Below, piece by piece: positions 12,932 through 52,131 of a DNA stretch of 64,000 nucleotides. The notes under the pieces are model-generated. The model did not search any database, was not told where the DNA came from, and was given only the letters and a program-made list of their open reading frames with translations. Position 1 is the stretch's first letter; each line of letters begins with the position of its first letter. Both the position numbers and the translations under genes were made by a program. Source of the stretch: a virus; the IMG/VR virus record IMGVR_UViG_3300042301_002363, positions 1 to 64,000 of that record. One strand, written 5' to 3'.

Positions 12932-15900
12932 TTACTGATTACGTTTTAACACATCAATTCTGTAATTAGGATCAAGTATATCTCTAAAGTTTTTAATACC
13001 TGTAAGGTCAACAATGTCTTTTACAATTTTTGCATCACCCTTTTCATATGCTCCTGATTTTCTAGAATAGAATGCATCTTTCCAAATAGATTGATACAAT
13101 TCACTATCATAATCTGGATCTGCTTCTTCACCACCATTCATTGTCATGGCCATTCCATATTTGATACCATGATTTAGCATTCTAATGGTTGCAGAAAATT
13201 CACGCACAAATGGTATTGCTGTTGTAAAGTTCTTAACGTATTCCTGAGAACCTTGTCCAACAGGGAACATGGATACAGTTTCACCTTTTGTACCCCAGAT
13301 CACTCTAATTGCATTACCTTCAAGCATGCTTAGTTCCTCATCATCGTCATCTCTACGTTTAACAAATGATAATAACATCATACTGATGACAGTTAATAGT
13401 GCCATTGCAATTGCGTCACGCCTTGCATGATGTACACGTTTTGCATAGAAATCACCAACATCTTCTGTTCTTACAACCTTACCTGTTTTAGGATCCTTGA
13501 TTACATAAGTTTTTAAACCACCAGACATTCCCATTTTGGAAAGAGTATTTGAACCTACCAAAAATTCTTTCATTGTATTTCCTACGCCAAACAACTTCAT
13601 TGATCTTGCAAATGCTCTCCAGTAACCTAATGCCATTTCTGAACCTTCCCAGTTAGGACGCAAATATCCAAATCTGTTTAGAAATTGTGGAACCAAGAAT
13701 TTTCTAAAGAAGAACACCATCTTACCAAGTATTCTACTTTCAAATTCTGTTTGGTCATTCCCTGCATAGTTACCTTGTGCTCTACGCATTTCTGAATAAA
13801 CAATATTCCTTATACGTTTTTCATCTTCTTTTGTATAGTTTACATCTTTTCTAATTACAAGATTACCATTGGCATCTTTGTAATATGCTTGATGAGAGGG
13901 TATCATAATAATATTCCCACTAGCATCTCGCTTAAAAGTTTTTTCACCAGTAACAGGATCAATAGATTCTATTTCTTCAAATCTGTAGTTATCCATAATT
14001 GCATACATTACTGTAACTGCAATTTCTGTATCACCTTTATCTTGAAGCATGTATCCTAACTCACCAACAGACGATAACTTTTCAGCCATTCTTCTTTTTC
14101 TTGATCCAGATGAGTTTTGAAAATACTTAATGATATCTTTTTGTGCAGGATTCATCATCCTGTAAAGCATTGTGCTTTCACTCAAGTCAGAAAGTCTACC
14201 CCAGTCTTTTAAATAATTTGCTAGAAAACCATTATACCCATACACTTTACCTTTTGCATAAAGCCAATTCTTTTTGCTATAATGATCACTGTCATTACCA
14301 CCAGCTGCAAGAAATGCTTGAACATTACCTGAAGTATAGTTTTTTGTTTGATTGACAATATCAAATCCAATTCTGATAAAACTTGTATACTTGAAGAAAG
14401 AATCTACCATCTTCTTCATCTTTCTACTTGCCTCTTGAGTACTTTCAGTAATACCATATAGATATTTACCATTCTCAAACTCAATGATCTTTAAGAGGTT
14501 ATCTATCTCACCAAGTTTTGTCTCAATATCAATTTTAGTTTTTTCTCCAGTCTGTGGATCTGTCACATAGATTTCACCTTTCAAACGATCTTTTGCTAAC
14601 TCATTACGTTGAAGTCTGAGAAATTCAATAAAACCTTTTGATACAGGGGCTACTTCTTGCATTGCAATATTCATGTGTGCTTCAGTAGTCCACTTCATAA
14701 ATGAACCAACAGCGTCAGTAGATTGTATTTCCTCATCAAGTTGATTAGAAAAACGCATGCGTATACGTGCACCAATATCACCATAGATATTTTCTGACAT
14801 ATCTTGTTGACCTTCAGCTTTCAAGTGTTTATCTACAAATGCATTATACTGCTTTGCAAAACCTCTACCAAATCCTTCATTTGCTATACTTTCAACAAGA
14901 CTAGCAGCAAAACCAGGAACAGTGTAACCAATTGTTCTACCTTCAATACGCTTTTGCATACCAAAGAAAATATCCATCATTGTATTGTAAAACTCAAACA
15001 TCTGAGGATTTTTTAACAAGTCAAGATACTTAGCATTTATGTTGTTTGTTGGAGCCTTGGTAGGATCAATAACAAAATGACCTTCGTCTGATACAATAAT
15101 TTCCTTTGGAAGAGGAATGCCATCATTACCCTTGATAAATCCAGGATTATATGCGCCTCTTTCAATTGTAAGTCTACCTGAGATATTTAATTCTGTAACT
15201 TCTTCAGGTGTTTCTTGTAGTGCTTCAATTTCTGAATTGCTAAGTTTTCTACCATCCAACGTCCAATTACCAATACGTAAGCGTTTAAGTTTGTAGTATT
15301 TAGGATTAGGAACAGTCTCCATGTATTTATCAGCAACAGTAGAAGATGGAAGTCTTTCAAAGTTAAATGACTTAGGAACCTTGTTTGCTTTTGTGTCGTA
15401 TCCAGTTGCAATACTTTGATATTTGTTGTAATGCGTTTTCTCATACCAGTTTCTGAAAGAATTTTCAACTTCACCAAATCTGCGTACAGAAAATATTACA
15501 TTATTCTCAGCCTCTTCTATTTCATCTGCAATACCTTTTGTTCTTGCAACAGCCAAATTAGATTGAGCATTATTCATCTCATTGAATGCAGTTTGTAATA
15601 ATCTATACTGTGTATCAAACTCTTCAATGTAATTAGGGTTCAACTGAAATGAAACAAGCTTTCTGATCTCTGCAGATATTTCTGCTACTTTTTTACGATC
15701 CTCTTTATCAAGTGTGCTCTTTTCTGTTTTCTTACCTTCAATAATGTCTTCAATCTCAGCCTCAATTCCATCTAATTCTGAAATCTCTTCATCAGTAAGA
15801 TACTTTGGATTAAAACGTCCTGCATTTTTATAAGGACCCATAATCTTTTTCTTCCTGTCAATAAGTTCTTTTATTGTTGGATCGCTTTGTACAATTTCTG

Positions 15901-19027: not shown

Positions 19028-19028
19028 T

Positions 19029-19610
19029 TTATAAACACTTTATTTTATCAAGTATATCGTCATTATTGTAGTTAAGACCTCGCATATTTGCGACAAGATC
19101 TCTAGCAGCTTTTACAAATTGATCTAGTCTCATTCTCTGACTGCTCTCACTATAAAGATACTCAATTACTGCAGGAGAAAGATCAAGATTGGCCATTTCT
19201 TCATACATATTATAAAGAGGATTGTCAGACTCTGGATTATCAAACAAGTACTCATCAGAGTATTCTATCCCAGCTCTTTTTGCATCTTCTTCTTGAATTG
19301 CTCTTGCTTCTATTTCATTAAATGCTTTCAAATACTCGTTATAGTATATGGTAACTAAATCCTGACTTGGATTAAATACAACCTCTTGACCATTAGACAT
19401 CTCTCTACGATACGCGACATTGCCTTCAAAAAGTTTATTGTTCTTATTTACAATGCTTTCAGCAACTCTATACGCTTGAGCTTTGCCACTTGGAAAAGCA
19501 GCGTTACTAATAAATAATGTATCAAAAGAGGTTTGCTGAATGTTCTTTGTTACATTAGGAGCAATTGCTTTTTTGATAATTGATTTTTTTATATCAGTTC
19601 TACATTTCAT
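19029..19610 (-). CDS. Small protein between the giant cargo genes (candidate linker)
   Basis: 193 aa, separated from its neighbours by 2 nt and 1 nt. Cys only at positions 3 and 192. Confidence 0.7.
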   Translation of the reverse strand: MKCRTDIKKSIIKKAIAPNVTKNIQQTSFDTLFISNAAFPSGKAQAYRVAESIVNKNNKLFEGNVAYRREMSNGQEVVFNPSQDLVTIYYNEYLKAFNEIEARAIQEEDAKRAGIEYSDEYLFDNPESDNPLYNMYEEMANLDLSPAVIEYLYSESSQRMRLDQFVKAARDLVANMRGLNYNNDDILDKIKCL

Positions 19611-19612
19611 AG

Positions 19613-22600
19613 TTAACAGTTATTTTCATCTGTTGGGTCAATACTTGGTCTATTATTAGGCTTAATGATAGTCCTGTTCTGAGCAGCAAGAGCAAGTATG
19701 GCTTTTCTATTACCATCTTCTTCACCCCACATCATCCTCTTATTTGTTGTCAAAGATATGATAGTATTTTTAGATGTCACTATGTATTCTGTATCTTTAT
19801 ACTCTATGATTTTTGCAGCTATATCAAGTGCTTTCATATTTGCTTCAGCTACTGATATTTTAGATTTAGCACCTTCTAATAGTGGATTATAAAGTTGCCA
19901 TGTACCATTTGCATTTTGTTGAGTAACAATATAAGTTGTGCCATTATAATTAACATATCTTCCTCTTTGTATTTCAGGAACCTTTGCTTCATTTTCAGGT
20001 TGAGGTTTCATGCCCAATACATTCATAAGAGCTGCAAGAGAATTTTCACCAGCATCTATTTGATTCTGAGTCACATCAGTTTCTTTATCTATGCCTTCTT
20101 GCAAAATACCTGGATCATTCTTTTTCAATTGTGATTCAGAAATATCATCTGTGATAACAACGTTCTCAGTAGGTTTTTTACTTGTGTCTGGTTTTTTGTT
20201 TTCTTCACTCACATCAGTTCCAACTTTTTCACCAGCAGTGGTGTCAACAATATTTGTGTTGAATACAATTGATTCTTTTTTATCTATGTATCGCTTATAT
20301 GTTTCAGCATTTTCTGTACTGAAAGCAATTGGACTAAGTGCTTCTGAAGCATACTGTGATGGTATTATCTTATACTTTGCAAAGGTTCCAATATTTGAAA
20401 ATGTTGTTGTACCCATGATTGAATCAAACAAGTTAGATCCAATTGATTTTCCTTTAGAAGCATTGTTGTCAATACCCTGTAACACATATGTATTTAAACC
20501 AATACGCAAGATACTTGGGAATACAAACTCAACAGAGTCTTGTTCTGTCATGTCTTTTTGAATACCAAACATTCTACCAAGTGTTACATTTGCTTTTTGA
20601 TTTTTACCAGAAAGGTTTACAGTAAACTCTGAACCTAATGCGTCTGCTATATTTATACGATCTACTTTTGCAAGATCTGTACCTTCAGGAAACTGTAAAT
20701 CTAATGCATCAAGTACATAGTTCATTGCTTTAATCTTAGCTTCAGGTAAAGACTCTTTTGTCATATCCTGTTTTTCATCCAAGAATGCTTTTACAATAGG
20801 TTTTGAGAAATTTGGTTTCTTAGAGTTTATTGTAAACAATACTCCTCTTGTGTTGTTCTTATCTCTAAACTTAGGTATCTTTCTGTTATTATTTTCTGAT
20901 GCTGCAGCATATGCAATTTGATCAAACATCTCATCAAAAAACTTAATAACACCATCTTGTGATTTTTCTCCAGTATAGTTTAGCATAAAAGATTTGAAAT
21001 CTTCTTCAAAGTTTTTACTCTGAACAACTGACTCAATACCTTGTATAAACTCATCAATATAATTTGACAATGGAACTTTTAATTCTGCTGGCATATATGA
21101 TAAGAATGAACCCTCTTTGTATTGTAATCCTGTACGTACAAGGTCATGATAGAATAGACTTTTGACAAACTGTCTTTCATCTGTACCTCCTTGATTGTAT
21201 AAGAATGCAATATCATCAGCTATCTTACTTGCATATTCACCTTTGACTTTAGCTTTGCTTATCATTGATATAAATCTTTCACTTATACCCTGATAGCTTT
21301 TACCATTAAACAATACTGTTGCTGTGTTCTTAGATTCAGACTGACGCAACAATTTTAAGAATTCATTGTCAGGATATTTTTCTCTAAATCTTTCTACCTG
21401 TGTAAATAAATCATTTGTAAACCAGTACTCAGGAGTAAACGTTCTAAGTATCATCTCATCATCATTATCTAACAATGCTTGAATTGTTGGATTATTTACT
21501 TTTCTAGAACCAGGATAAGTCATTTTAAACTTATTCAATGCTAAGAAACTTGTAAGTGTATTTGAAATTGTCTTTGGATCTTCAAAGTATCCTTTAAACG
21601 CTGCTGTTATAGGGAAAAAGAATGGTGTTCTTTCTAAGAATATTTTAGAAAATTGTTCATTAGCATCATCTAATGCATCTTTTAAAATTGACCATACTTG
21701 ATTATCTCCAAACAACTCAGATGCAGATTCCTTATCAAAAAGCTTTTCATCATCTTTTAACTCATTGATGTTATCTCTCATCTTGTCAAAAGCTACAAGA
21801 CTTGGATTAAGTCTTTTAAACAAATTGGTAATACTAGCAGCTCTATTGATTGTCCATGTTTGCTGAGCTTGTTTTCCATAGTACATCAGCAAAATAATCT
21901 TCATTTCATTTTCAGTCAATGGTTGATCATTATCTGCATATACCATTTCAAAACCTATTGCAGATGGCGTAAGTTGATTATTTTTTAACGCATAAAGACT
22001 AAGTTTCTTTGGTGCAAATCCAATCTTAACTTTAAGTGGATTTTCAAATAACACCATGTCTTTAAATGATTTTGATGTAACAACCCCTGCAGCTTTTAAT
22101 CTATTAAGTGCAGACTCATCCTCTTCAATAAGTGCAGCTAGTTCTTCTTTTACTGCTTGATTGTAGAATTTGTAATCTTGTTCTAGATCTTCTGACAATG
22201 CAAACTGTGATTGTTGTACTGCTAACGCAGCTTTGCGCACCTCTGGTAAAAAGTTAAAGGCCAACGCAAACTCTGGATCCAATCCAATACCAATCATTGC
22301 AAGTGTGGTACTTGCGTTTACTTCATTCATTTGAAGAGCTGCAGGAATAGGATCTTTAGCACCATCAGCAAACATACCAAGTATGTTACCAATTATTGCA
22401 ATAACTCTTTGATCCTTTTCATTCATTTGTCCAAATGTATCTTTCAATACTATTCTTCCTTCAAGTGTTTGATATGCCCACACTATTGCTTTATCAGATA
22501 GCTTTAAGTTATATTGACTAGCTAATGACAAGAACTTGTTCATGACAGCTGTACGTCCAATACCATCCTTGTTCATGTTGTTTTCTACCTTAGACTCAAT

Positions 22601-25600: not shown

Positions 25601-28600
25601 TTTGGCCAAGTCAATTAAATCATCTCTCAGAGATTGGTTATTTGGATCATCAAAGAAATCTTCTAACATGTTGAACCTGTAAGCTCTCAAACTTGAGTCA
25701 TCAACATTTGCTGTTACATTATCATCTTCTAATACAGCATTATATTTGTTTATTAACTCATTGCTTTTGCCATTTTCAAAATTAGCTTTCAAGTCAAGTC
25801 TACGATTCCACTCGCGAGATGCTCTATTGTATTCTTGATTTACAATAGAAACAAGATCCTCAACTATCTTAAGATACTTTCCTTGATAAAGCAATTGACC
25901 TTTGTCATTAGTTTGTTTTGCTTCTTTTGAAGTAAATGGCTGGTATATAGCAGATATTAAAAAGTTTGTAGATGTAGCCTCTAACTGATGGAATGATCTT
26001 AAGTATGTAGATATTTCATTACCTCCTTTGTCACGCAATACTTTTTTATCCATAAACGCTAATACCTGCAGCATGTGCAAAGATCTTTCGTCAACAGATT
26101 TAAAGGTTTGTCCTTTTTTAGTGACATCCCCAATACGTTGTTGTACGCCACCAAACATTGCTACAGTAAAGTTGTCTAAGAACAACTGCATTTTTACGCT
26201 GTCTGCATTAACTTCTCCTTTTAAAATTGGACCAAGTAATGCATTGTCTTCCATGAATGATCTTAATGTAGTTTCAAAATATGGATCATCAGCCAATGCT
26301 TCTTCTAATGTCATTGTGTTCAAACGCTGACCAAGTAGTAATAATGGATTGTATTTTGTAAAACGATAGATTGGTTTACCCTCAGCATTTTTTACAACAC
26401 TTGGTATTTCTGTTGGATCATACTTCACAACATATGCAGATGCCTTTTTAAGAATAGTAAGCAATCGTTTTGCATCTTTATTTTTAGATTTCTCATCATC
26501 TAGTATATTTCTAATACCACTATTTGGTTTACCACTTTCAAGATAAGATGCGTCTAAAACAATCTTCAAACTTCTGAAAAAGTCTTTTTCTAAATACTGC
26601 TCTTGTCGTACAAAGTCTTCATTGACATCATAAAACTTTTGCAGTCTTATATCAACATCAAGATTGATATTATTTTCAACCTTGTTAATTCCCATCAATG
26701 ATAATCGCACTAATGATTTTGGAACTCTCATTCCAATTGTAATCATAGCATTGTGGATTTCATCAGTAAGCTTTTGTAAACGCATTGTTTGACCAACCAT
26801 TCCATCAAGAATATCTGGTGCGTTCATAAAGTTTGTGGCAAAGTTTTTAAGATATTGAACTGCCTCTTTAAACTCATCAGTGTTTGCATCTGTTGAATGC
26901 TTCTTAATGAATCCTGAAATAATATCATTACGTTTTTTAGTAACGTCTGCATCAACAACCTTGTCAAATACTCTAAAGTTTACAGACTCAGAACGTAATA
27001 ATTCTTCGCCAGAAGTGATGTCTTCCATGTTAACCTTACGTGGAGTAGATACATTGAACATCACATTATTCAACTCAACACCATGTAATACTTCTACAAT
27101 AAGATTTAGTAATTGCTTATTGGTTTGTGCAACACCATTTGAGTCTGCTTTTGTACGTGTTTGTATTTCATTGAATATTGTCTGAAGATCTTTACCCACT
27201 TGATCGTATCCATCTTCAATCATTTGTTCTGACATTACACCAATGCTATCAATGATGTTTTTTGGATTAATGCCAGCTGTTATTTTCAAAAGTGTAGGGA
27301 ATAACACTTGTCCATCAATCATACGTGGAAAGTATATTCCATTCTTTTTATCAAACTGATCACTTCTAAGAGTAGAAAAGAATCTTCTTATTTGAGCTAC
27401 ATAAGAATCCATGCGATTATATTCTGCCATTCCAGAATCAAAGTCATTGCTTTCTAATTCTTCTTGTGCTGATACGCGTTCATCATCTTGTACCTCAGTT
27501 GCAGTTTCACCATTAAATGTGTTTTCTACTTCCTCTGAATCTAACGTAAACTCATCATTTTCTCTTAGTATCTGTACACTGTTAGCTTTGGTATACTTGT
27601 CTTTTACCAATCGTTTCAATGTTTCAAAAGAGTACTGACCCATAGTGTTGTCTATAACTTCACCATTAATTAGTCTTATCTTATTTACGTTAGCCTTACT
27701 GTCATACTTTGAATCACCAGTAAGGTTAATATCATTTACATTTAAACCCTTCATTCTTGCACCAAGAATAAATCTGTAAGATGATATCAATGGTCCATAA
27801 TCTTTTTCAATCTGCTCTCTTGCTGCAGGATTTTGCGCAACAAGTTTTTCCATACTATAAACCTCACTTAGAATTTTATCTGCAGCACGTTGGAATTTAG
27901 TTTCAAAAGTATCTGACTGAACTGCATCTTGAAATATAACACCAACCATCATGTCAATCAATTGGTTTTGTTCAGAAACACTAAGTGTAGAATTTTTCTT
28001 TTCTACGTTACCTTGTTCATTTGTATTATACTTTACAAGTCCATCAATTAATTCATATGCAACTTGACCATTGTACATGTCAGATTTAATAGTTGCTGTT
28101 TTGTAGTATCCAGTTTTCACACGGTCATACACAGCTTCTATCTGAGTTCTATTTTTGACAAAGAAGTTAAGTAACTTTTTAAGCATGTCAAAGAATATTT
28201 GCAATGCTGTTTTAGGTTTTCCTTTTCTTTCTTTGCTCATGTATTTTTGAAAGCCATCAGCAAGTATTTCTTCTGCTACTAACTCAGCAAGCACATCATA
28301 GTTTGTAATAGATAAATTTCTTACTCTTGCAAACTCTTTCAATGATAGTGATGTAAAGTTGTCAGAATGCTTTGGGTCATCCATTATTTGTTTGACTAAC
28401 ACCTTACGTTCTGAATCTGTTAAAAGATATCTAAAGACACCATGAAATGCTTCATGGTAGATTGTACCTTTACCAGTAATAGTATCATTTAGGTAAATGA
28501 TTTTGTCTTTAAACATTCCTAAAACTGTACCATCAATTTTAGCCAGATTGATCATATCCTTTAATGAACTTGTATCAAGTCCAAACTGAGGTAAGTTTTC

Positions 28601-31600
28601 AGCAAGCCATTGTGATTCTGTTAATATATCTTGTTCAGTAGCAACTTCAATACCTGTACCTTCAGCAATAGAGAATGGAACATCATCATCAGTAAAGTCA
28701 ATTACATCATTGTCTTCATCGTTTTGATTTTCATCAGTAACATCTTCTTCTGTTTCTGTAGTATCATTCAGGATAATTGGCGTACTGCTAACATTATCTG
28801 GTGTAATTTTTACAGAAGAATTTTCTTTGTCAGCAACCTCATCTACAATAGCTTTTTCTTCTGAAGTCTGATCAAGATTTTCAGAAGTTTGATCAGCCAT
28901 TGATACATTAACAGGAGACTTTGCAACAAGATTAAATGATCTACGACCAGTAGATTCATACACTTTTACATTTTTCATGGATCTGTTGTACGAACTTCTA
29001 GCATCGCTTTGAGTAGATAATGGTGAATTAATTTTCAAAACACGTACGCCTTCATCATTTTCTCTTGAGAATAAATCTTCTATTTGGAAATTTGTATATG
29101 GAGCAAAGTCTTCATTAAGCGCATCTAAAAATTCACCATATACATTATCAGGATTTGCCTTAATATATTTGGTAACAGAGTCTAGAACTGTTGCAGTAAA
29201 CTTCTCTTGTGCAATAGATACTTGCTGTGCAAGATTTTTAACATTTAGAGATGCTGTTGGTAATTTTGCTAATTCAAAAACTGTTGTATAAAATTGCACC
29301 AAATCATCTGCCTTGGATAAATCTAATTTTGATAATGCAATGTTTTCTGATTTTACTATACCAACAAGAGGTCCTTCAGTAAGTGCTTTTGATAATAACA
29401 TAATTTCCTTTTCAGGAATTATAAAATTATACGCGTACTTAGAGTTATCAGACTTAAGAATGATGTTACCATAACGAGAATCTTTTGAACCTCTGTATGG
29501 GCGTATCTCTACTTGCAACGCTCTTCCATTTTTAATGGTAGATGTTGCAAAGTCAATAGTCAATTGTGGTTCTGCTTTTCCTGGCATTCTTACAGGATCA
29601 AACTGATACATTGTCTTCTGCATTGCTCTTATGTTTGCAGATTTATTTATATTAGTTGGATCAATGATTGTTGCCATGGTTGTGATAAACTTTGCAAAAA
29701 ACTCAGGGTTTTGCAATTGGTATACCTGATCAACAATAGCATAAGAGATTTCACCAGTAGATGGAAACTTCAATACAAAATGCATTGTTTTTGTCACACG
29801 AGTCAATGGTTGATTTGTTTTCATCAACTCAATCAATCGTGCATCCTCTTCTTGAAATAATGTTTTTACTTTTTCATTTAGATTCAGTACATCCTCAATG
29901 TATGTTTTTTCAGTAAGCATTTTGACTTCTCCACCAGGCAGTGTTACTTTAATTCTTTCATTAGCTGATAAGAAAGTAGAACTGACATAGTTGATTGTAG
30001 CAAATTTTGGATCAAAGGTTTTGTAAAAGTAAAAAGGCAGTTTGCGTTCTTCTTCAGATACAGCATCTCCTTTTGCATCAATTTGCACTACTGTTACTGT
30101 TTGACTAAATTGAGGATTCTTTTCTACAAGTTCTTTAAGAGTTGTTTTTACAGGTTGTGAAGAACGCGTATTGGTAAAATCATACATCTGCAAAAAGTCA
30201 TCAGTGACATCAATTGATGTTCCTGTATTAAAAGCTTCTTCAATTTTATTGGATATCTTGTCTTTGAACTCTTGATACAATTTTTGAGAAGCAACAATAG
30301 AAAGGATGTCAGAATTATTTAAGTCCTGTACATTGTTTCCTGCTTTCTTAACTGACATATCCTGAAGCATTTTCAAATGTCCAGGATTTGTAAGATCAAG
30401 TTTTTCTGTAGAGTTGTCACTTGACACAAATACAAAGTTGTCCATAGAGTATATGTAAAACTTTTTACCTGTTGCAAGTATCTCACCTACCAACGCAAAA
30501 TCTTGTTCACTTGCTTTTGGTCTTGATACAGTAAGCACTTTGCCATTTGGATTAGACTGAAGATATGCAACCTGAGTTGAATTCTCAAAAGTTTCATAAT
30601 CTCTTTTTGCAAGAGCTGCATATTCTGTTTCTGTTGCTGCGAGTTCTTTTAATCTTTGAACACGCATATCACCAAAGTCACTTAGCTTAACAGCAGTAAT
30701 TTTAATACCTGATGATGGTGATGACATCTTACTTAGTTCTGTAAGGATACTAACATGGTCTTCAGGATTAATTGCATCTACTGTTAAACCAGACGCAAAG
30801 AAATCTTCTTTGAATACTTGCTTGCCATCATTTGAATCAGACCAGTCTGCAGGTCTTGCTGATTTTCTTGCGATAATATTTATAGGATCAATTTCTGTAA
30901 GTGTTCCATCGCTTTCAATCTTGTTAAGCATACCATCATATTCAATGGCTTCAATCATAGAACCATCCTTTAATGTGACAAGAACGTTATCTAATTGAAT
31001 AGTCTCTGCAACAGAATCAATAGGAATATAACTTGACTTAGGCTGCAAACTGTCAATGTAATCATCTATTGCAGAATACAATACCTGTTTGTATGAGTTA
31101 TCTGCTTTAGATAAATCACCAATTACTTCTTTTAATTGACCACGTATTTGATCAATGGCATCTGTCTTATCTTCTATTGTATCAAATTTATAAGTTGATA
31201 CATAGTTCTTTAATAACTGAAGAACACCTCCAGCTTTTGTTAAGTCTTGAAGAGTGATTAATGATTGCTTACCTAACTCTTCAATTGCTTTTGATATACC
31301 ATCATAAGTTTGAGGTCTTGGTTTTTTCAAATCAAAAAGCGTAAAAGCATTTGATAAATACTTAGCTGTATCATCAAACATGGAGTCTGTTCCAAGATTG
31401 ATAATATCCAGTCCTTTACCAATATTATACTTCTCTTGATTTAAACCAGAAAGCCCATTGTAGATATGGGCCATATTGTGCAGAGCTAATTTCTTTTGCT
31501 CTTCTGTCAAATTTGCACTTAGAATAAATCTTGCTGCGTTATCATAGTTAGTGTAAACACTTGGACTTAACCTAATTAAGTTTTCTACTACAGGTATATA

Positions 31601-31627
31601 TTGTTCAGTAGTTAAAGCACATCCCAT
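19613..31627 (-). CDS. Virion-packaged two-barrel RNA polymerase fused to a zincin-like protease domain
   Basis: RIPTEDKRSM...AGSDFDIDSL (DFDID at 23405-23419) as in crAss-like RNAPs such as phi14:2 gp66, plus D.AKDP. HEAFH (28442-28456) followed by EEILAD. Confidence 0.88.
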   Translation of the reverse strand: MGCALTTEQYIPVVENLIRLSPSVYTNYDNAARFILSANLTEEQKKLALHNMAHIYNGLSGLNQEKYNIGKGLDIINLGTDSMFDDTAKYLSNAFTLFDLKKPRPQTYDGISKAIEELGKQSLITLQDLTKAGGVLQLLKNYVSTYKFDTIEDKTDAIDQIRGQLKEVIGDLSKADNSYKQVLYSAIDDYIDSLQPKSSYIPIDSVAETIQLDNVLVTLKDGSMIEAIEYDGMLNKIESDGTLTEIDPINIIARKSARPADWSDSNDGKQVFKEDFFASGLTVDAINPEDHVSILTELSKMSSPSSGIKITAVKLSDFGDMRVQRLKELAATETEYAALAKRDYETFENSTQVAYLQSNPNGKVLTVSRPKASEQDFALVGEILATGKKFYIYSMDNFVFVSSDNSTEKLDLTNPGHLKMLQDMSVKKAGNNVQDLNNSDILSIVASQKLYQEFKDKISNKIEEAFNTGTSIDVTDDFLQMYDFTNTRSSQPVKTTLKELVEKNPQFSQTVTVVQIDAKGDAVSEEERKLPFYFYKTFDPKFATINYVSSTFLSANERIKVTLPGGEVKMLTEKTYIEDVLNLNEKVKTLFQEEDARLIELMKTNQPLTRVTKTMHFVLKFPSTGEISYAIVDQVYQLQNPEFFAKFITTMATIIDPTNINKSANIRAMQKTMYQFDPVRMPGKAEPQLTIDFATSTIKNGRALQVEIRPYRGSKDSRYGNIILKSDNSKYAYNFIIPEKEIMLLSKALTEGPLVGIVKSENIALSKLDLSKADDLVQFYTTVFELAKLPTASLNVKNLAQQVSIAQEKFTATVLDSVTKYIKANPDNVYGEFLDALNEDFAPYTNFQIEDLFSRENDEGVRVLKINSPLSTQSDARSSYNRSMKNVKVYESTGRRSFNLVAKSPVNVSMADQTSENLDQTSEEKAIVDEVADKENSSVKITPDNVSSTPIILNDTTETEEDVTDENQNDEDNDVIDFTDDDVPFSIAEGTGIEVATEQDILTESQWLAENLPQFGLDTSSLKDMINLAKIDGTVLGMFKDKIIYLNDTITGKGTIYHEAFHGVFRYLLTDSERKVLVKQIMDDPKHSDNFTSLSLKEFARVRNLSITNYDVLAELVAEEILADGFQKYMSKERKGKPKTALQIFFDMLKKLLNFFVKNRTQIEAVYDRVKTGYYKTATIKSDMYNGQVAYELIDGLVKYNTNEQGNVEKKNSTLSVSEQNQLIDMMVGVIFQDAVQSDTFETKFQRAADKILSEVYSMEKLVAQNPAAREQIEKDYGPLISSYRFILGARMKGLNVNDINLTGDSKYDSKANVNKIRLINGEVIDNTMGQYSFETLKRLVKDKYTKANSVQILRENDEFTLDSEEVENTFNGETATEVQDDERVSAQEELESNDFDSGMAEYNRMDSYVAQIRRFFSTLRSDQFDKKNGIYFPRMIDGQVLFPTLLKITAGINPKNIIDSIGVMSEQMIEDGYDQVGKDLQTIFNEIQTRTKADSNGVAQTNKQLLNLIVEVLHGVELNNVMFNVSTPRKVNMEDITSGEELLRSESVNFRVFDKVVDADVTKKRNDIISGFIKKHSTDANTDEFKEAVQYLKNFATNFMNAPDILDGMVGQTMRLQKLTDEIHNAMITIGMRVPKSLVRLSLMGINKVENNINLDVDIRLQKFYDVNEDFVRQEQYLEKDFFRSLKIVLDASYLESGKPNSGIRNILDDEKSKNKDAKRLLTILKKASAYVVKYDPTEIPSVVKNAEGKPIYRFTKYNPLLLLGQRLNTMTLEEALADDPYFETTLRSFMEDNALLGPILKGEVNADSVKMQLFLDNFTVAMFGGVQQRIGDVTKKGQTFKSVDERSLHMLQVLAFMDKKVLRDKGGNEISTYLRSFHQLEATSTNFLISAIYQPFTSKEAKQTNDKGQLLYQGKYLKIVEDLVSIVNQEYNRASREWNRRLDLKANFENGKSNELINKYNAVLEDDNVTANVDDSSLRAYRFNMLEDFFDDPNNQSLRDDLIDLAKKQVAFEEIDMSDLLSALNDYAQKEFQTYLEKLETLGLIETLPINEKDKKAEIRPAVAALLPSQYYSSSMLPTSLKEGFAKQSLIDAYGTPYGTNEASAIEPIEKLLFDMFMNNWRNGLYLNQLMDGDMALNVKNAQDYVKRLKKIVASGSNMKNGSHKVAYMNTITAFIHEEFPQFGPYFDAEQIESDFTIPNQNIREELLEGFEKAKGNTVENINGRVVKWADMMREIFDGQSISSLMHQIDMHDTLGRLDDRGLYILVAKHYRALTQDETRYLESMKVVNNAKKTITADRNVYHKQSESYIDRTDVSILDIIPQGEESIDEATARTYDELHGLYMSVYDLRKDRELAAEMPDAKNQITKIDIDIQNLYRDIHSYYRPMPHRQMMHNILNSMELFQIDQLMDTTASKNATLLPVDVFFSEKTEDGYINFKMAALNVPNSAKYLQVETSGVKDKAKHSVQSKLLLPANINEEEFRKIIETEVRNTGRTVSEGDIIAMQNIKTALNDYQLSLRQATKARLLYFTEVLRKGDDFDMGKLFTMIRDSLQQQNAPKNILDMFAVKPDGTPVFNPNLSLIRSTLEYYLLAQYSKNVTDEKVSGFKNFHESSFGYNVLFDTQENRVVTTQEIGENPQAFEDTRRFKSRPLGISVEEQADGTKLYYVEAIIPKPFFENAQQEQFYMDNLTRMFGVRIPTEDKRSMIALKVVDFTDSSKMNNIIVPHFVHLLAGSDFDIDSLFGRMMSYYKNGKGNYSLYGDYSIYDNPEVGEFIEFMHYMSKHEDIAPAIKQRKQELLNEGTIEMPGEGPLFEVMEALGFGDEKFMGAFRQVALKSKYTEQLDFTNYMFELTKESKELYVKAKEIAEQNPENRELAKTRNIYGKELADLKAIRKESVRKQRETKELLNYLDSVFEYQAIMDTLAKYGIPSNVSQYLSRPGFSEMVSPKYQNKNLAASLQILANEAVFNFLYINQRSSTQEFKDILSAFGIDLKAITKKSNLFTPTNMIESKVENNMNKDGIGRTAVMNKFLSLASQYNLKLSDKAIVWAYQTLEGRIVLKDTFGQMNEKDQRVIAIIGNILGMFADGAKDPIPAALQMNEVNASTTLAMIGIGLDPEFALAFNFLPEVRKAALAVQQSQFALSEDLEQDYKFYNQAVKEELAALIEEDESALNRLKAAGVVTSKSFKDMVLFENPLKVKIGFAPKKLSLYALKNNQLTPSAIGFEMVYADNDQPLTENEMKIILLMYYGKQAQQTWTINRAASITNLFKRLNPSLVAFDKMRDNINELKDDEKLFDKESASELFGDNQVWSILKDALDDANEQFSKIFLERTPFFFPITAAFKGYFEDPKTISNTLTSFLALNKFKMTYPGSRKVNNPTIQALLDNDDEMILRTFTPEYWFTNDLFTQVERFREKYPDNEFLKLLRQSESKNTATVLFNGKSYQGISERFISMISKAKVKGEYASKIADDIAFLYNQGGTDERQFVKSLFYHDLVRTGLQYKEGSFLSYMPAELKVPLSNYIDEFIQGIESVVQSKNFEEDFKSFMLNYTGEKSQDGVIKFFDEMFDQIAYAAASENNNRKIPKFRDKNNTRGVLFTINSKKPNFSKPIVKAFLDEKQDMTKESLPEAKIKAMNYVLDALDLQFPEGTDLAKVDRINIADALGSEFTVNLSGKNQKANVTLGRMFGIQKDMTEQDSVEFVFPSILRIGLNTYVLQGIDNNASKGKSIGSNLFDSIMGTTTFSNIGTFAKYKIIPSQYASEALSPIAFSTENAETYKRYIDKKESIVFNTNIVDTTAGEKVGTDVSEENKKPDTSKKPTENVVITDDISESQLKKNDPGILQEGIDKETDVTQNQIDAGENSLAALMNVLGMKPQPENEAKVPEIQRGRYVNYNGTTYIVTQQNANGTWQLYNPLLEGAKSKISVAEANMKALDIAAKIIEYKDTEYIVTSKNTIISLTTNKRMMWGEEDGNRKAILALAAQNRTIIKPNNRPSIDPTDENNC

Positions 31628-31639
31628 TTCTTTAAGTAT

Positions 31640-34600
31640 TTATTTAAAACAAGAATTTATCTTTCTCAATTGATCCAAAATTGATTCTTCAGAGACAGTA
31701 TCCTCCTTAACAAATTTACCAATTTTTTCTGAGATTTTTGCTAATTCTCTTCTAGTATCTTCCACAGTTTGAGTTGCTTTTTCTATTGCATCATCATATT
31801 CAGCAATAAGCGTATTCAACTTTTCTACTAATGCAGGATTAGATGCAAGATTTCTTTGACTGACAAGATCTTTTCTTTCTTGTTGATAGTCTGGTATAAT
31901 AGCAGTTTCATAGTCATTGATTACAAATTCCAATGACTCAATGCGACTTTGTGTTCTTTTGTCTATTACAGGTTTGTTTGTAGTAATTGATTTTTGAATT
32001 GCATCTCTAATTTCATTTAAGACTCTTTCTGTTTCTGCAGGTGTAGTAGAATTAGGGTATTTGATTTCTGCTACAAGTTTTGCAAAAACAGTTTCATCAA
32101 AACCTTCTGGAACTTTAACATTCACTTTTGTAGAACCACCATCTCTTCCAAATAAATCTTTGCCCTCAATGATTACACCAAGCACTCCATTGTTGATATA
32201 GTAATTAGTCTTACCATATCGTTTTAACTTGTTAAGTTCTTGAGATTCATCACCCATTTTTATAGATGTATCATCATTGATAAGTCTTTCGTTACCATTT
32301 TTTGTAGTAGATTCTACATTCAAATTTAAAACTACATCAACTGCTGATGTTTGTGCAGACATGCTTTCAAGTCTGTCAAACAAATCTTGAACTGATTGCA
32401 TTGGTAATGCAGGTCCACCTACAAATCCAGATGTTGTATCTTCAAATAGATTTAATTGTTCTTGCTCTTGACGAGCTGCTTTTTTTCTTTTCTGTTTGAT
32501 TTTGTCAAGAGGCACACCTGTCAGTATGGATTCTTTTATATCATCAAGATTACGTTTACCTTGTGGTATCTTGTAATACTCTTCTAATGTTTGAATGGTA
32601 GTTTCATTTGCTTTGTTATAAGCACGCAAAGATATTTGACCTCTACGCACCATTTGATCTACCTTATAGGTTGGATCTTCAAATGCTGTTAAATCACCCA
32701 AATGTAATCTTGTCCAATCAATATCTGTTCTTGCGTTGTTAAGTTCATTTGCAAGATCATTTGCTTTATCTTCAGATTCAATTTTCTCATCAGTAAGAGT
32801 TATTCCATTTCTGGAAACAACGTCATACCCTTCTTCTGGATCTCCTTCAACAACAAATGGCTCTTGCTCATTCTCTGCTTTGTTTGTACCATCTTTACCA
32901 GTACCATTAAGTTTTTCAAGTATTTCCAACTGTGCTTGTGCTGCTGCATCAGCTGCATCTATTGTTGATTGGCTTACAGGATTGTCTAATGGATCTTTTG
33001 TTTCATCAAGTGTTCCTTCTGGTTGTTCAAATACTTGAGGAACTTCTTCCTCTTGTGCTTCTTGAACAGGTGCATTTTCTTCCTCTGATCTCAAACGTTC
33101 ATCTTCTATAATAGATTGAATATCAGATATTTCAGCAGCCTTTGCAGTCATAATTTCAACCTCACGTGGAGTTAAATCAATACCTTCAAGATCGCGTCTT
33201 GCAATACTTTCTAATGTAATATCATCAACTTGTTGATTCTGTTTAAAGTTTTCATATACAGTATCAGAAATTACTTCAATAGGTGTATTGTTAAAGTGTT
33301 CTATAACATCATCATTGGTGATGAGATTTCGCTCCATTGCCAAATTCAACACTTCATTTTCTGGCATTGCATCAAGTTGTGCCATTTCAAATTCGCCACT
33401 ATTAACAAGAGCTTCTTTTGCCAAAGTTACTTTTGAACCATCCTCTACACCTCCATTTGCATTTTCATCAAAGTTTAAAGTTGATACAATAGAATCCACT
33501 TCATCTTTGTTAGCATTATATACTTCACTTTGTCTGTCAGTTAATTGAACCTTTTGAGCAATTCTACGTGCAATAAGTGCAAGTGTATATCTTGGAACTT
33601 TTTTGGTTTTTTGAAACTCTTCATACTGCATGTCATTGATGTCACCTGTAACATCCTGAGTTGCATATGAGTCAAGCATTTCAGCAATCTTGTCAGAAAT
33701 TAAATCATTAAGTTTTTTAATGTTTTCCTGTGCAAACTTTGCATTTTGTAAACCTGTGTTTTCATCAATACTAACAAGAACAAGATTTTTATAGTAGTCA
33801 CTACTTGTAACAGCAGTAGATAGTTCCTCATATAGTTTAGCAGCAAGTTGTAATTTTTCTACAACATCTTCTAAATCTGAGTTGGTAGCTACACTTAAAA
33901 TTATATCTCTTAATCTGTTATTTAAATTATCTACGAACTCAAGGATTTCATATTTGAATCTACCATCTTGAATGTTTGTAAGCGTTTGACGATAGTACTC
34001 TGGATTAAACAGCAAGTCCATTGCCTGTGTGTAATCTTTTGAATCTTGATCTAAACGCATGAAATCTACAACCTTATCAAGTGCATCACGTAATGATTGT
34101 TCTGATAATTTATCTGATATCCCAAATTCTTTATTGCGCAGATTGATAAATTCTCTAAATGTTTCTGCTATGTCTTTATGATCTAAAGAGTAGACAGTGG
34201 TATTTTCATCAATAAGGTTCCCATTCTCATCATAGTATTTAATAGAATTGATTGGAACTCCAACAAATGTGTTATAGATTTTTTCTTTTTGTTCTACAAC
34301 TTCTCCTGTTTCAGAATCTTGTCTCATCGCAATAGTATCACGATCATCCCAAAATTCCATCCACTTATCATATAATTCTAATAAGCGTTTCTTATCTTTT
34401 ATTTTTGCTTGTACTTGTTCTTTTTGCGCAGGTGTCATCTCTGTTGACTCTAAACTTTCTTCAAGAAGTTTAATATCTGCAAGCATGTTACCTGATTCAG
34501 CTTTGAAATTTTCAGGATTAGCAAGAACACGTAATGCATACTCAGATGAGTTAGACATTCCAGGAATTGCCAAAAGATCTTGAGAAACTTTTTGTGCGCG

Positions 34601-37219
34601 CTCAGAAGCACGCGTTGCTTTCATAGCGTTAAGTGCTACAATACGAATTGCTTCTTCTTGAGCATTATGCATTATGATTGCAGTCATTTGTTCTTTGGAT
34701 CCTTTTTCATACATTAAAGGATCTGGTATATTGCGCACCTTTCTGCGTATACCATCAACAGTGTCAGAATATTTTTTAACGTCTTTGGCCATTGCCTCAG
34801 TCATCTCAGCAGCAGAATTATATTTTGTGTCTGAAAGTTTAATTCCAAACGCAGCCTCAAACTCTTCATTACTCATAGTTTTACCCATTTCACGAAGTGC
34901 TTGTTGGAATGTAAGGATAGTACCAGAACGATTAGCTGCAAGCGCAGCACCAAGTACTGAATTATCCTGAGCATTTTGCCATTCATACTGATGACCTTTT
35001 GCTGCTGCTTCTGTTTGTGCTAAAGTTGAATCAACTTGGTTTGTAAAGTTTACAACATTATCTTCAAATTTCTTACCTGACATCTGAGCCATGACATCAT
35101 TTTGTAAATTGATATCACGTTTCAATTGCTCACGCATTTTTACATATGGATTTTCAGCAGGATTATCTTTGTACGCTCTTTCTGTTGCTTTTTCATTTAT
35201 GTAACTTGTCATTTTGCCAACAGTGTGAGTAACAGGTCGTATCATAGATCCTGTTAATGCACCTTGTAAAAATGTTCTAAGTCCTTGTTTTGTAAACTGC
35301 TCATCTAGACCTTTATTAAAAGCTTCGCCCAATGTGTATTTAGTACCATTGTACTGTCCAGCATAATAGTATTTCCAACCAGCTCCAGACATTTCTTGAA
35401 GGTTCTCTTGAATACCTTCAGTAACCTCAAACCTAAGCAAGTCCTTAGCAAAAGCTTTACCTACTTCAAATGCTGCTTGCTTTCTTCCAAAATCTTTAGC
35501 AATCTTTCCTGCTAAACCATACGTACCAAAGAAACCTTTTTCATAAGTCTTGCCAAGAAGCTTAGTTGATTTCCACATTTTATTTACACCAAGTGTTTTT
35601 TCAACACCTTCTTCTAAAATTTCTTTTGTCCATTTATTTGCTCCAATAAAGCGATTGAATAAAGTACCAAATTGCAATCTGTTTGTGACTAGTAACAGGT
35701 TAAGATTTGTATTATAATTTGCACTTGCTGATCTCATTGCAAGATCTTGCATTTTAGTAAAGTCTTCAGCAGATGGATTTTTACCTTCATTATCAGAACG
35801 ATACTGTTCAACCATCATATCTAATGTTGAACCATAAGATGTAACAGCCTCAAAGTTTGCTTCTGTAGAAGACATGTTAAACTCTTGAGCCATACGTCTC
35901 ACACCTTGTAATCCAATTCCTGTAAGCTTGCCTGCACTTAATCCACCTTTAGCACCTGCTACAACCTTTTCACCATAGCGTATTCCTGTACCTAGTATAG
36001 GCGTACCTTTTGCAAAATTAGCAGCAAGTTCTCCAAATGATTTAGATTTGATAATGTTACGCATGTTTAGTGTGTAAATATCAAATACTTCTTTCATTGA
36101 TGAACGTAATGCTTCAGATCCCACCTTACCAGCATTGGTTATATTTTTTGCTTGATTAGCTTTCTGAGTAACCTTACCAGCTGCTGATAATGCGTCAGTA
36201 GATTGGTTAGCAAATTGATATGCCCCCTTACCCATATCAGCAACAAAATCAGTAAATCTAAAAGCAGTAGATTTTAAAGTTTGCCTTAAACCAGTTTTTG
36301 CTCCTGCCATTGCTGCTTCTTTAGCACCAACACGTGCAGCTGTTGCACCAAAAGATACAGCACCACCACCGCCAGTTACAGCTGTTAGCACTGCATCAGC
36401 AACAAGTTCCAATCCTAATCCTGCAAATGTACCTAATGCAAAACCAGCATTACCTACAAACTCAGATACTGAACGTTTACTAAATATATCATCTTCTTCT
36501 TCTGGTGGTACAAACGTATAGTTACGCATTGATTCTTTGTACTCTTCAAAATTGGCATCTATCATTTCACCCTCAGTATACTTGAGTTTGTCCCAGTCCC
36601 AATTCCAAATTGCTTCACCTATCCTTCCATAGGATGCAAAGTAATCTGTAAAAGTATTACCAAATCTTGTGGCAAAACTGTCAAAGCCTTTGCCTAATGC
36701 GGATCCCCAAGTTTCTGCTTCAATATAACCCTTCTGCTTTTCAGGATTGAAGTAGTTAAACCCTTGAGGATCAAAGTCATCTTGATATCTAAACATATCA
36801 ATATCCTGTCCTGCATACCTTGTCTTAGGTCCTACAATAGGATTGATCTTTTCACTTAAAGTTTTTGGTTGAAATCTTTCTACAAATATCTCATTAGCAT
36901 TTGAATCAATTACTTGATTCATTGCACTCATAAAATCACTTGGCTGAGGTGTTGGCTGTGTTGATATATTTGGTTTTGCAGGAGCAGAAGGTTGTCCAAA
37001 ATTATTTGCACCATCTCCTGGTCCAGGAGCTACAATGTTATTAATATTAAAGGATGGCGCAGATGCTTCAGACGTAGCTTGTATTTCTGCTGCGCCCATA
37101 TCTAATGCATCTTCTACTGATAAGTTTTGTGACAAACTTGTTTCAGCACCCATGCTTGCTTCAGCATTAGCAGCCATTTCTGCTAATTGCTGTGTTCCCA
37201 TTTCTAGTTCCTCTGCCAT
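31640..37219 (-). CDS. Giant virion cargo/ejection protein with Gly/Ala-rich membrane-inserting segments
   Basis: GNAGFALGTFAGLGLELVADAVLTAVTGGGG and TEGIQENLQ motifs typical of ejection proteins. Acidic low-complexity region. Single Cys, third residue from the C-terminus. Confidence 0.7.
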   Translation of the reverse strand: MAEELEMGTQQLAEMAANAEASMGAETSLSQNLSVEDALDMGAAEIQATSEASAPSFNINNIVAPGPGDGANNFGQPSAPAKPNISTQPTPQPSDFMSAMNQVIDSNANEIFVERFQPKTLSEKINPIVGPKTRYAGQDIDMFRYQDDFDPQGFNYFNPEKQKGYIEAETWGSALGKGFDSFATRFGNTFTDYFASYGRIGEAIWNWDWDKLKYTEGEMIDANFEEYKESMRNYTFVPPEEEDDIFSKRSVSEFVGNAGFALGTFAGLGLELVADAVLTAVTGGGGAVSFGATAARVGAKEAAMAGAKTGLRQTLKSTAFRFTDFVADMGKGAYQFANQSTDALSAAGKVTQKANQAKNITNAGKVGSEALRSSMKEVFDIYTLNMRNIIKSKSFGELAANFAKGTPILGTGIRYGEKVVAGAKGGLSAGKLTGIGLQGVRRMAQEFNMSSTEANFEAVTSYGSTLDMMVEQYRSDNEGKNPSAEDFTKMQDLAMRSASANYNTNLNLLLVTNRLQFGTLFNRFIGANKWTKEILEEGVEKTLGVNKMWKSTKLLGKTYEKGFFGTYGLAGKIAKDFGRKQAAFEVGKAFAKDLLRFEVTEGIQENLQEMSGAGWKYYYAGQYNGTKYTLGEAFNKGLDEQFTKQGLRTFLQGALTGSMIRPVTHTVGKMTSYINEKATERAYKDNPAENPYVKMREQLKRDINLQNDVMAQMSGKKFEDNVVNFTNQVDSTLAQTEAAAKGHQYEWQNAQDNSVLGAALAANRSGTILTFQQALREMGKTMSNEEFEAAFGIKLSDTKYNSAAEMTEAMAKDVKKYSDTVDGIRRKVRNIPDPLMYEKGSKEQMTAIIMHNAQEEAIRIVALNAMKATRASERAQKVSQDLLAIPGMSNSSEYALRVLANPENFKAESGNMLADIKLLEESLESTEMTPAQKEQVQAKIKDKKRLLELYDKWMEFWDDRDTIAMRQDSETGEVVEQKEKIYNTFVGVPINSIKYYDENGNLIDENTTVYSLDHKDIAETFREFINLRNKEFGISDKLSEQSLRDALDKVVDFMRLDQDSKDYTQAMDLLFNPEYYRQTLTNIQDGRFKYEILEFVDNLNNRLRDIILSVATNSDLEDVVEKLQLAAKLYEELSTAVTSSDYYKNLVLVSIDENTGLQNAKFAQENIKKLNDLISDKIAEMLDSYATQDVTGDINDMQYEEFQKTKKVPRYTLALIARRIAQKVQLTDRQSEVYNANKDEVDSIVSTLNFDENANGGVEDGSKVTLAKEALVNSGEFEMAQLDAMPENEVLNLAMERNLITNDDVIEHFNNTPIEVISDTVYENFKQNQQVDDITLESIARRDLEGIDLTPREVEIMTAKAAEISDIQSIIEDERLRSEEENAPVQEAQEEEVPQVFEQPEGTLDETKDPLDNPVSQSTIDAADAAAQAQLEILEKLNGTGKDGTNKAENEQEPFVVEGDPEEGYDVVSRNGITLTDEKIESEDKANDLANELNNARTDIDWTRLHLGDLTAFEDPTYKVDQMVRRGQISLRAYNKANETTIQTLEEYYKIPQGKRNLDDIKESILTGVPLDKIKQKRKKAARQEQEQLNLFEDTTSGFVGGPALPMQSVQDLFDRLESMSAQTSAVDVVLNLNVESTTKNGNERLINDDTSIKMGDESQELNKLKRYGKTNYYINNGVLGVIIEGKDLFGRDGGSTKVNVKVPEGFDETVFAKLVAEIKYPNSTTPAETERVLNEIRDAIQKSITTNKPVIDKRTQSRIESLEFVINDYETAIIPDYQQERKDLVSQRNLASNPALVEKLNTLIAEYDDAIEKATQTVEDTRRELAKISEKIGKFVKEDTVSEESILDQLRKINSCFK

Positions 37220-44866: not shown

Positions 44867-44879
44867 ATTTTAAAATTTT

Positions 44880-44907
44880 AAAAAGGGATATGTCTTACCA
44901 CATCCCT
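44880..44907 (-). terminator. Terminator-like hairpin overlapping promoter motif C
   Basis: Minus strand AGGGATGTG-gtaaga-CATATCCCT-TTTT. Confidence 0.6.
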
Positions 44908-44939
44908 CATTAGAAGTTACAAAATTATTCTGATTTATC
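44905..44939 (-). promoter_or_regulatory. Conserved phage promoter-like motif, copy C
   Basis: Minus strand GATAAATCA-N11-TAACTT-N4-TGAGG. Confidence 0.6.
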
Positions 44940-44968
44940 CTATCCTCCATAATACAAATGTAGGAATT

Positions 44969-52125: not shown

Positions 52126-52131
52126 TTAAAT

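Follow-up and report, generated by a model that had tools for sequence, protein, structure and literature searches.

Crassviruses, which are common in the sea and outnumber all other phages in the human gut, pack and inject close to 1 MDa of protein, including their own RNA polymerase (RNAP). The locus described here lies in the window, a 64,000-nucleotide (nt) stretch covering positions 1 to 64,000 of IMG/VR virus record IMGVR_UViG_3300042301_002363. The record is an 88-kb virus contig estimated to be 69% complete; its close relatives are contigs of 119–123 kb. Mechanical calling of open reading frames (ORFs) gave four consecutive minus-strand ORFs of 1859, 4004, 193 and 2031 amino acids (aa), 8087 aa in total, separated by spacers of 12, 2 and 1 nt. 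These four ORFs, the predicted RNAP cargo set of a crAss-like phage, encode six cysteines per 8087 aa, and all six lie at the ends that face one another.

The first member of the set, an 1859-aa protein of 207 kDa (31640..37219, minus strand), had its only cysteine at residue 1857, three residues from the end (...INSCFK; codon 31649–31651), and none at its N-terminus. The second, a 4004-aa protein of 454 kDa (19613..31627, minus strand), starts MGC and ends ...ENNC, its only cysteines being residues 3 and 4004 (codons 31619–31621 and 19616–19618). The third, a 193-aa protein of 22 kDa (19029..19610, minus strand), starts MKC and ends ...KIKCL, with Cys3 and Cys192 encoded at 19602–19604 and 19035–19037. 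The last, a 2031-aa protein of 233 kDa (12932..19027, minus strand), starts MSAC, with its only cysteine at residue 4 (codon 19016–19018) and none at its C-terminus. The cysteines on the two sides of the three junctions were at positions -3 and 3, -1 and 3, and -2 and 4, and both outer ends had none. An earlier note on this DNA had placed six cysteines at abutting termini only; translation and counting agreed with it letter for letter, and none of the six is internal.

Cysteine codons (TGT or TGC) occurred six times in the coding frame, whereas the two alternative frames contained 201 and 537 of them; therefore the depletion acts on the protein and not on the DNA. Fifteen other ORFs of the window contained 2.06% cysteine, a rate at which 167 cysteines are expected per 8087 aa (Poisson P of six or fewer, ~1e-62). 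The chance probability that none of six cysteines would lie more than four residues from a terminus was ~4e-15, and their restriction to inner ends contributed an additional factor of 1/28, for a combined probability of ~1e-16. In a background of 230 mechanically called ORFs (100–799 aa, 11 sources), cysteine was present within residues 2–7 of six ORFs (2.6%) and within the last six residues of 12 (5.2%).

Several lines of sequence evidence identified the four genes as the RNAP cargo set of a crAss-like phage, as the earlier note had supposed. The motif DFDID of crAss virion RNA polymerases was found at residues 2737–2741 of the 4004-aa protein (23405–23419), and GSDFDIDS was conserved in an alignment of the RNAP core (A1). 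Residues ~2400–2890 matched crAss-like RNAP genes in 73 phage records by tblastn (E down to 5e-16), nearly all of them named crAss-like or Bacteroides phages, and the A1 profile matched the gp66 RNA polymerase of Cellulophaga phage phi14:2 (PDB 6VR4 chain A; E 7e-22). A zincin-like motif, HEAFH, lies at residues 1058–1062 of the same protein (28442–28456), and a hidden Markov model of this block matched a gp47-like protein of Kehishuvirus (E 6e-25), gp53 of cr109_1 and a protein of IMG/VR locus L026. The 2031-aa protein contained a PD-(D/E)XK nuclease domain at residues 140–291 (18155–18610; Pfam E 7e-7), the only family found in the cargo proteins using PHROGs and Pfam. If the 2031-aa protein is ejected, this nuclease would enter the host alongside the polymerase.

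Single cargo proteins had no phmmer match among PDB sequences, and neither megablast of the region nor tblastn of the 193-aa protein returned a match in the phage collection. In an AlphaFold2 model of the 193-aa protein, for which Foldseek found no PDB match at E <=0.001, Cys192 ends a terminal helix (183–192) within a low-confidence helical half, as would be expected in a model of a part that needs a partner. The AlphaFold2 model of the 2031-aa protein placed Cys4 in an N-terminal coil. Together the four proteins total 917 kDa, and the uncultured phage that carries them is probably marine. Packaging in the virion and ejection are known for phi14:2 and crAss001 (PMC10172136; bioRxiv 10.1101/2020.03.07.982082), and by analogy the proteins of the window would be packaged and ejected too.

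The terminal cysteines were retained in close relatives. Both end cysteines were kept in 47 of 51 homologues of the 193-aa protein, one of these at 45% identity; the other four were pieces of 114–183 aa in which cysteine was kept at whichever end remained. Across the six IMG/VR loci L001–L006, the ends ...ENNC, MKC or MALKC, ...KIKCL, MSAC, ...INSCFK (retained in L005 and L006) and MGC were all kept, and one contig had a single extra internal cysteine.

Annotated Crassvirales records were compared in the same way, and the terminal cysteine rule was kept in 11 of 12. In phi14:2, g067 (1797 aa) has its only cysteine as the last residue, the g066 polymerase (2180 aa) has cysteines at 3 and 2179 only, and g065 (1421 aa) has one at 3 only. 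Kehishuvirus ‘tikkala’, a crAss001 relative, encodes a 2310-aa protein with a single cysteine at -2, a 2412-aa polymerase with Cys5, a cysteine at -9 and one internal cysteine (1334), and a 1349-aa protein with Cys5 only. The first of these partners is encoded on the opposite strand and the ends match all the same; the rule is therefore a property of the proteins rather than of the gene junctions. In prototype crAssphage gp45 ends ...FSCM and gp44 starts MSC, and cr8_1, cr11_1, cr3_1, cr271_1, cr109_1 and cr4_1 also follow the rule.

The survey was extended to 80 IMG/VR loci, the best of at least 478 related stretches in a scan with A1, with RNAP cores 23–99% identical to that of the window. 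These contained 124 same-strand junctions, 108 of them unique by their end sequences and 94 with both partners at least 140 aa long. Among the 94, cysteine was present on both sides of 73 junctions, on neither side of 18, on the downstream side only of three and on the upstream side only of none. The 71 unique junctions of giant to giant proteins were divided into 56 with cysteine on both sides and 15 with neither; none had it on the downstream or the upstream side only. In the 73 paired junctions the C-terminal cysteine was located at -1 to -5 (12, 33, 21, 5 and 2 cases, respectively) and the N-terminal cysteine at 3 to 6 (39, 27, 3 and 4); the downstream start was the first ATG in 65, an internal ATG in four, GTG in two and TTG in two. 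Each of the three downstream-only cases had a small gene inserted between the partners (a ferritin-like gene in L026 and in L067, a GIY-YIG gene in L032), and the giants flanking the insertion paired as usual. Gaps between junction genes ranged from -8 to 271 nt.

Cysteine was nearly absent elsewhere in these proteins. Many proteins of 4300–4870 aa had exactly one cysteine, at the C-terminal end; exactly one was present in 80 of 147 records of at least 1000 aa, and the chain records contained 0.095% cysteine overall (middle proteins being counted twice in both figures). When 16 downstream proteins were aligned over their N-terminal 300 aa, the cysteine was the only invariant column, and the residue was retained while the remaining sequence diverged to 11–25% identity. 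The junction contexts were ...KxC-hydrophobic and M-x-x-C-P-N-x-N. Loci L084 and L088 follow the rule (translation table 11). The RNAP ORF of L082 looks frameshifted: it lacks a cysteine at its end, and a second ORF, which overlaps it, has one there. The L093 protein (3998 aa, open at the 5' end) has no cysteine and no ORF after it, and both L041 and L050 are truncated at their 3' ends.

Two side observations came from the same loci. Both ferritin-like genes (L026:8243–8737 and L067:13907–14392; PF00210, E 3e-19 and 6e-20), from distant contigs, sit exactly between cysteine-paired cargo genes, one on the N-side and the other on the C-side of the polymerase gene. Internal cysteines numbered 4–12 in polymerases of gut Intestiviridae (L039–L089) and 0–1 in most environmental ones (L015–L094), a difference that may reflect habitat oxygen.

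The positions at which the cargo proteins are divided differed among lineages, and the cysteine pairs moved with them. The last 56–67 residues of the 193-aa protein aligned to the very end of unsplit proteins of 4014–4333 aa in L018, L020, L021 and L022, which end ...KIKCL or ...ITCL, and the end of the 4004-aa protein aligned just upstream of this tail in L020 and L021. The unsplit protein of L018 has cysteines at 3 and 4229 only; that of L020 has one more, distant, at 2811. Residues 127–193 of the 193-aa protein (19032–19232, minus strand) are thus the detached C-terminal tail of what relatives encode as a single protein; the window clade has cut the tail off, with the new pair ...ENNC/MKC at the cut.

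A second set of breaks lay around the stretch between HExxH and DFDID, which are spaced about 1500–1680 aa apart in all lineages. In the window this stretch is in one protein and has no cysteine; in L030 it is in one protein whose only cysteine is at the C-terminus; and in cr109_1 it is continuous, with no cysteine before residue 2018, ~300 aa past HExxH. Gut Intestiviridae and Kehishuvirus have a break ~150–250 aa after HExxH with a cysteine pair there, L026 has a break 1059 aa after HExxH with a pair there, and L037 has a break 388 aa after DFDID and an 859-aa middle protein with cysteine at both ends. The expectation set out beforehand, that terminal cysteines would appear where genes are split and vanish where they are fused, agrees with these comparisons: breaks differ among lineages and each is paired. 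Searches for two further comparisons were negative. The Kehishuvirus ends had no blastp match to crAssphage gp44, so there is no direct comparison of split and fused forms there, and phmmer found no relatives of the 1859-aa protein in loci with an RNAP lacking the N-terminal cysteine, for which fusion is not claimed.

In the 94 junctions no C-terminal cysteine occurred without a following N-terminal one, and the outer ends were bare; the junction cysteines must therefore work together, and the simplest reading of the pairs is a head-to-tail disulfide. The ~917-kDa set would be synthesized in four polypeptides whose only cysteines are those of the three internal junctions. There, the tail at the C-terminus of each protein would dock on the N-terminal end of its successor, and the two lone cysteines would form an inter-protein disulfide, giving one covalent pseudo-polyprotein in the order 1859, 4004 (zincin and RNAP), 193 and 2031 (nuclease). 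Such a link would be short-stubbed because each cysteine lies 1–6 residues from an end. It would hold the pieces together at fixed stoichiometry in the capsid, and probably also during ejection, and the reducing cytoplasm of the next host could open it. With no other cysteine present there would be no mispairing and no trapping by periplasmic oxidases. From the sequence pattern, we consider this head-to-tail disulfide chain, with packaging, ejection and reductive release as described, to be on balance the probable explanation; the sequence pattern, its conservation, its tracking of gene breaks and the RNAP identity were observed directly, while the disulfide chemistry, the packaging and ejection of these particular proteins and the reductive release are the parts that we infer.

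A disulfide of this kind has been seen in another phage. In the cryo-electron microscopy structure of the cyanopodophage A4 pre-ejectosome, gp27 inserts a C-terminal helix into gp26, and a Cys1715–Cys5 disulfide joins the two (PNAS 2025, PMC12002296). In the genome of Anabaena phage A-4L, gp27 (1717 aa) has a single cysteine at 1715 and gp26 (1114 aa) a single cysteine at 5. A4 resembles the window in having consecutive giant ejection proteins, each with a lone cysteine near facing C- and N-termini, and lone cysteines within ~5 residues of facing ends, as in gp27 and gp26, were present at three window junctions. It differs in belonging to the Saffermanviridae, in having one link and not three, and in having no RNA polymerase. 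No match at E up to 1 was found when A4 gp26–gp29 were compared by phmmer with the window cargo and phi14:2 g065–g067; judged by sequence, the A4 ejection proteins are analogues, not relatives, of those of the window. The A4 paper presents the bond as a structural detail and not as a rule (PMC12002296).

Closer systems share more of the architecture. The sets gp67-gp66-gp65 of phi14:2 and gp47-gp50-gp49 of PhiCrAss001 resemble the window in their DFDID RNAP and zincin-like block and share the terminal cysteine rule, but have three members, not four, and are cut elsewhere. For the virion proteins of phi14:2 and crAss001, ejection in a partly unfolded state has been proposed (PMC10172136; bioRxiv 10.1101/2020.03.07.982082). 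The available passages of PMC10172136 do not mention cargo cysteines, although they describe disulfides in the tail and in the gp57 dimer of crAss001 virions, and the word ‘cysteine’ is absent from the available text of the phi14:2 preprint (bioRxiv 10.1101/2020.03.07.982082). The same preprint text describes the three proteins as fused in some phages and then probably cleaved, which fits a cysteine pair as a stand-in for a peptide bond.

Suppression of cysteine is also known outside the crassviruses. The ejection proteins of Schitoviridae (N4 gp50; DEV gp71, gp72 and gp73) are cysteine-suppressed, the reason given being passage through the periplasm (PMC11445570). N4 resembles the window in having a giant ejected virion RNA polymerase nearly without cysteine. 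The Schitoviridae polymerase is, by type, another one than the crAss RNAP. The Schitoviridae proteins have no cysteine at all and no terminal pairs, whereas the four cargo proteins of the window keep six terminal cysteines; the complete lack of the residue that marks the Schitoviridae proteins holds in these four for internal positions (none) and not for the termini. In AB toxins, an unrelated, non-phage system, one interchain disulfide joins two chains through translocation and is reduced in the cytosol, the chains arising from proteolytic nicking of a single chain. The chain proposed for the window would work likewise, through a disulfide that persists during translocation and is opened in the cytosol.

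Other explanations of the pattern were weighed against the disulfide chain. The paired ends might dock non-covalently, with their two thiolates sharing a zinc or iron ion. Co-occurring cysteines are compatible with any direct contact between them, and the earlier note had raised this option; each junction, however, offers only two ligands, no conserved His, Asp or further Cys adjoins them, and the A4 precedent is a disulfide, so that a metal bridge appears unlikely. Still less weight was given to a different disulfide topology, in which each middle protein forms a loop by pairing its own Cys3 and C-terminal cysteine, and the first and last proteins pair together. Middle members always have both cysteines, and counts alone cannot separate the topologies, but two-protein chains can pair only between proteins, new pairs lie exactly at new cuts between ends that are adjacent in the unsplit protein, and A4 pairs head to tail.

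It is equally hard to credit that the terminal cysteines serve some other chemistry (acylation, a capsid or portal link, or a catalytic nucleophile) and do not touch each other. Nothing specific favors this, beyond the unpaired C-terminal cysteine of crAssphage gp47; independent sites would leave unexplained both the cysteine-free outer ends and the count of 0 of 94 for C-terminal cysteines without a following N-terminal one, and Pfam searches detected neither an intein nor any other domain at the ends. A functionless pattern, produced by chance or by shared descent among loci that are mutually related, has a negligible probability given the chance values of ~1e-62 for depletion and ~1e-16 for placement, the low background rates of terminal cysteine (2.6% and 5.2%), break points that vary by lineage and each carry a pair, and cysteines that persist where the rest of the sequence falls to 11–25% identity. 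Three further candidates were rejected outright: a signal at the level of RNA or of the gene junction by gaps of -8 to 271 nt and the opposite-strand Kehishuvirus partner; a lipoprotein signal by cysteines at residues 3–6, which leave a signal peptide no room; and an intein or split intein by the lack of a Pfam family at the ends and by cysteines too terminal for an intein fragment.

A number of observations weigh against the head-to-tail disulfide chain. A disulfide in any crassvirus cargo protein would rest on the sequence pattern and on analogy. Virions are assembled in a reducing cytoplasm, and the gut habitat of many crassviruses is anoxic. The 88-kb record, at 69% completeness, yielded neither a thioredoxin nor a glutaredoxin; in the search of the record for an Erv1 sulfhydryl oxidase, the positive control gave no match anywhere. 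The A4 bond staples a ring of the pre-ejectosome, and a role as a tow-line is therefore not implied by it; by that analogy such a role would be a further step. The survey loci are mutually related, and their counts are accordingly not independent events. Two IMG/VR junctions require GTG starts, and one of the 73 paired junctions depends on a doubtful TTG start (L032). In cr273_1 the downstream protein starts MFC, but the upstream protein has no cysteine closer to its end than 50 residues, and both partners carry many internal cysteines. CrAssphage gp47 (857 aa, L007:5069–7642) has a single cysteine at 856 and is followed by gp46, which has none; this unpaired cysteine lies outside the polymerase chain. 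Finally, crAss002 and cr110_1 fit the rule only if the polymerase is taken to begin at an internal MSC. In the crAss002 relatives L055, L057, L063, L065 and L069 from IMG/VR, no earlier ATG precedes this MSC in the frame. The polymerase genes are probably annotated 32 codons (crAss002, L008:16089–28826) and 14 codons (cr110_1, L010:16497–29750) too far upstream.

Two claims of the earlier note stand in part. It had proposed that the chain could be pulled out in gene order; gene order is not required, as the opposite-strand first partner in Kehishuvirus demonstrates. Its remark that such a chain had not been described holds for the rule in crassviruses, whereas one disulfide in A4 has been seen by cryo-electron microscopy and cysteine suppression in N4-like phages is in print. 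Full-text literature searches found no paper describing the terminal cysteine rule in Crassvirales; within the reach of these searches, the rule, the three-link chains and the way the pairs track gene cuts had not been described before.

The rule, by which every gene break is flanked by two cysteines, one per side, and other positions have none, extends from seawater phages to prototype crAssphage. It would give a testable model of stoichiometric packing, ordered delivery and release, and it explains why the module can be cut at differing places among lineages, connects crassviruses with the single disulfide observed in cyanophage A4 and also corrects gene starts. More tentatively, the cysteine pair may be a stand-in for the peptide bond, which would make the RNAP module one thread of ~0.9 MDa with redox-gated release or activation on arrival. 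If this doubtful extension were true, evolution could cut the module anywhere given a cysteine pair at the cut, and the thread would be ejected as a unit and then unzipped by host thiol reductants, with redox-gated release of nuclease and protease and the switching of a self-inhibited polymerase to its active state.

The genes around the chain had contrasting cysteine contents. Directly upstream of the chain, the 891-aa ORF (37222..39897, minus strand) contained no cysteine and L005 contained an 892-aa homologue, likewise with none; its product is probably a further cargo protein that is unlinked to the chain. The 697-aa ORF right after the cargo block (8867–10960) contained 43 cysteines (6.2%) spaced in a roughly repeating manner, and so contrasts as strongly as possible with the chain proteins; a 1947-aa ORF of the window contained 38. 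The count for the 891-aa protein confirms what the earlier note had said of it.

Positions 39908–54477, an upstream cargo-like block with ORFs of 781, 906 and 1652 aa, had few cysteines, arranged as C-x11-12-C pairs (478/491, 198/211, 358/370 and 298/311). The pairs form a recurring mini-motif that begins CP.G or CK.G and finishes C-hydrophobic-P, and may be small local disulfide loops. CYKCGGK lies close to the start of the 906-aa ORF. In gut phages, an RCGG-basic motif ends small neighboring proteins (L007 gp48, L008 gp30, L010 and L014). The 415-aa virion structural protein of the window (phrog_1645; 10978–12225) had its best matches in marine phages, with 63–65% identity to the T4-like cyanophages S-RIM12 and S-RIM8 and to Puniceispirillum phage HMO-2011, a very wide spread for one structural gene.

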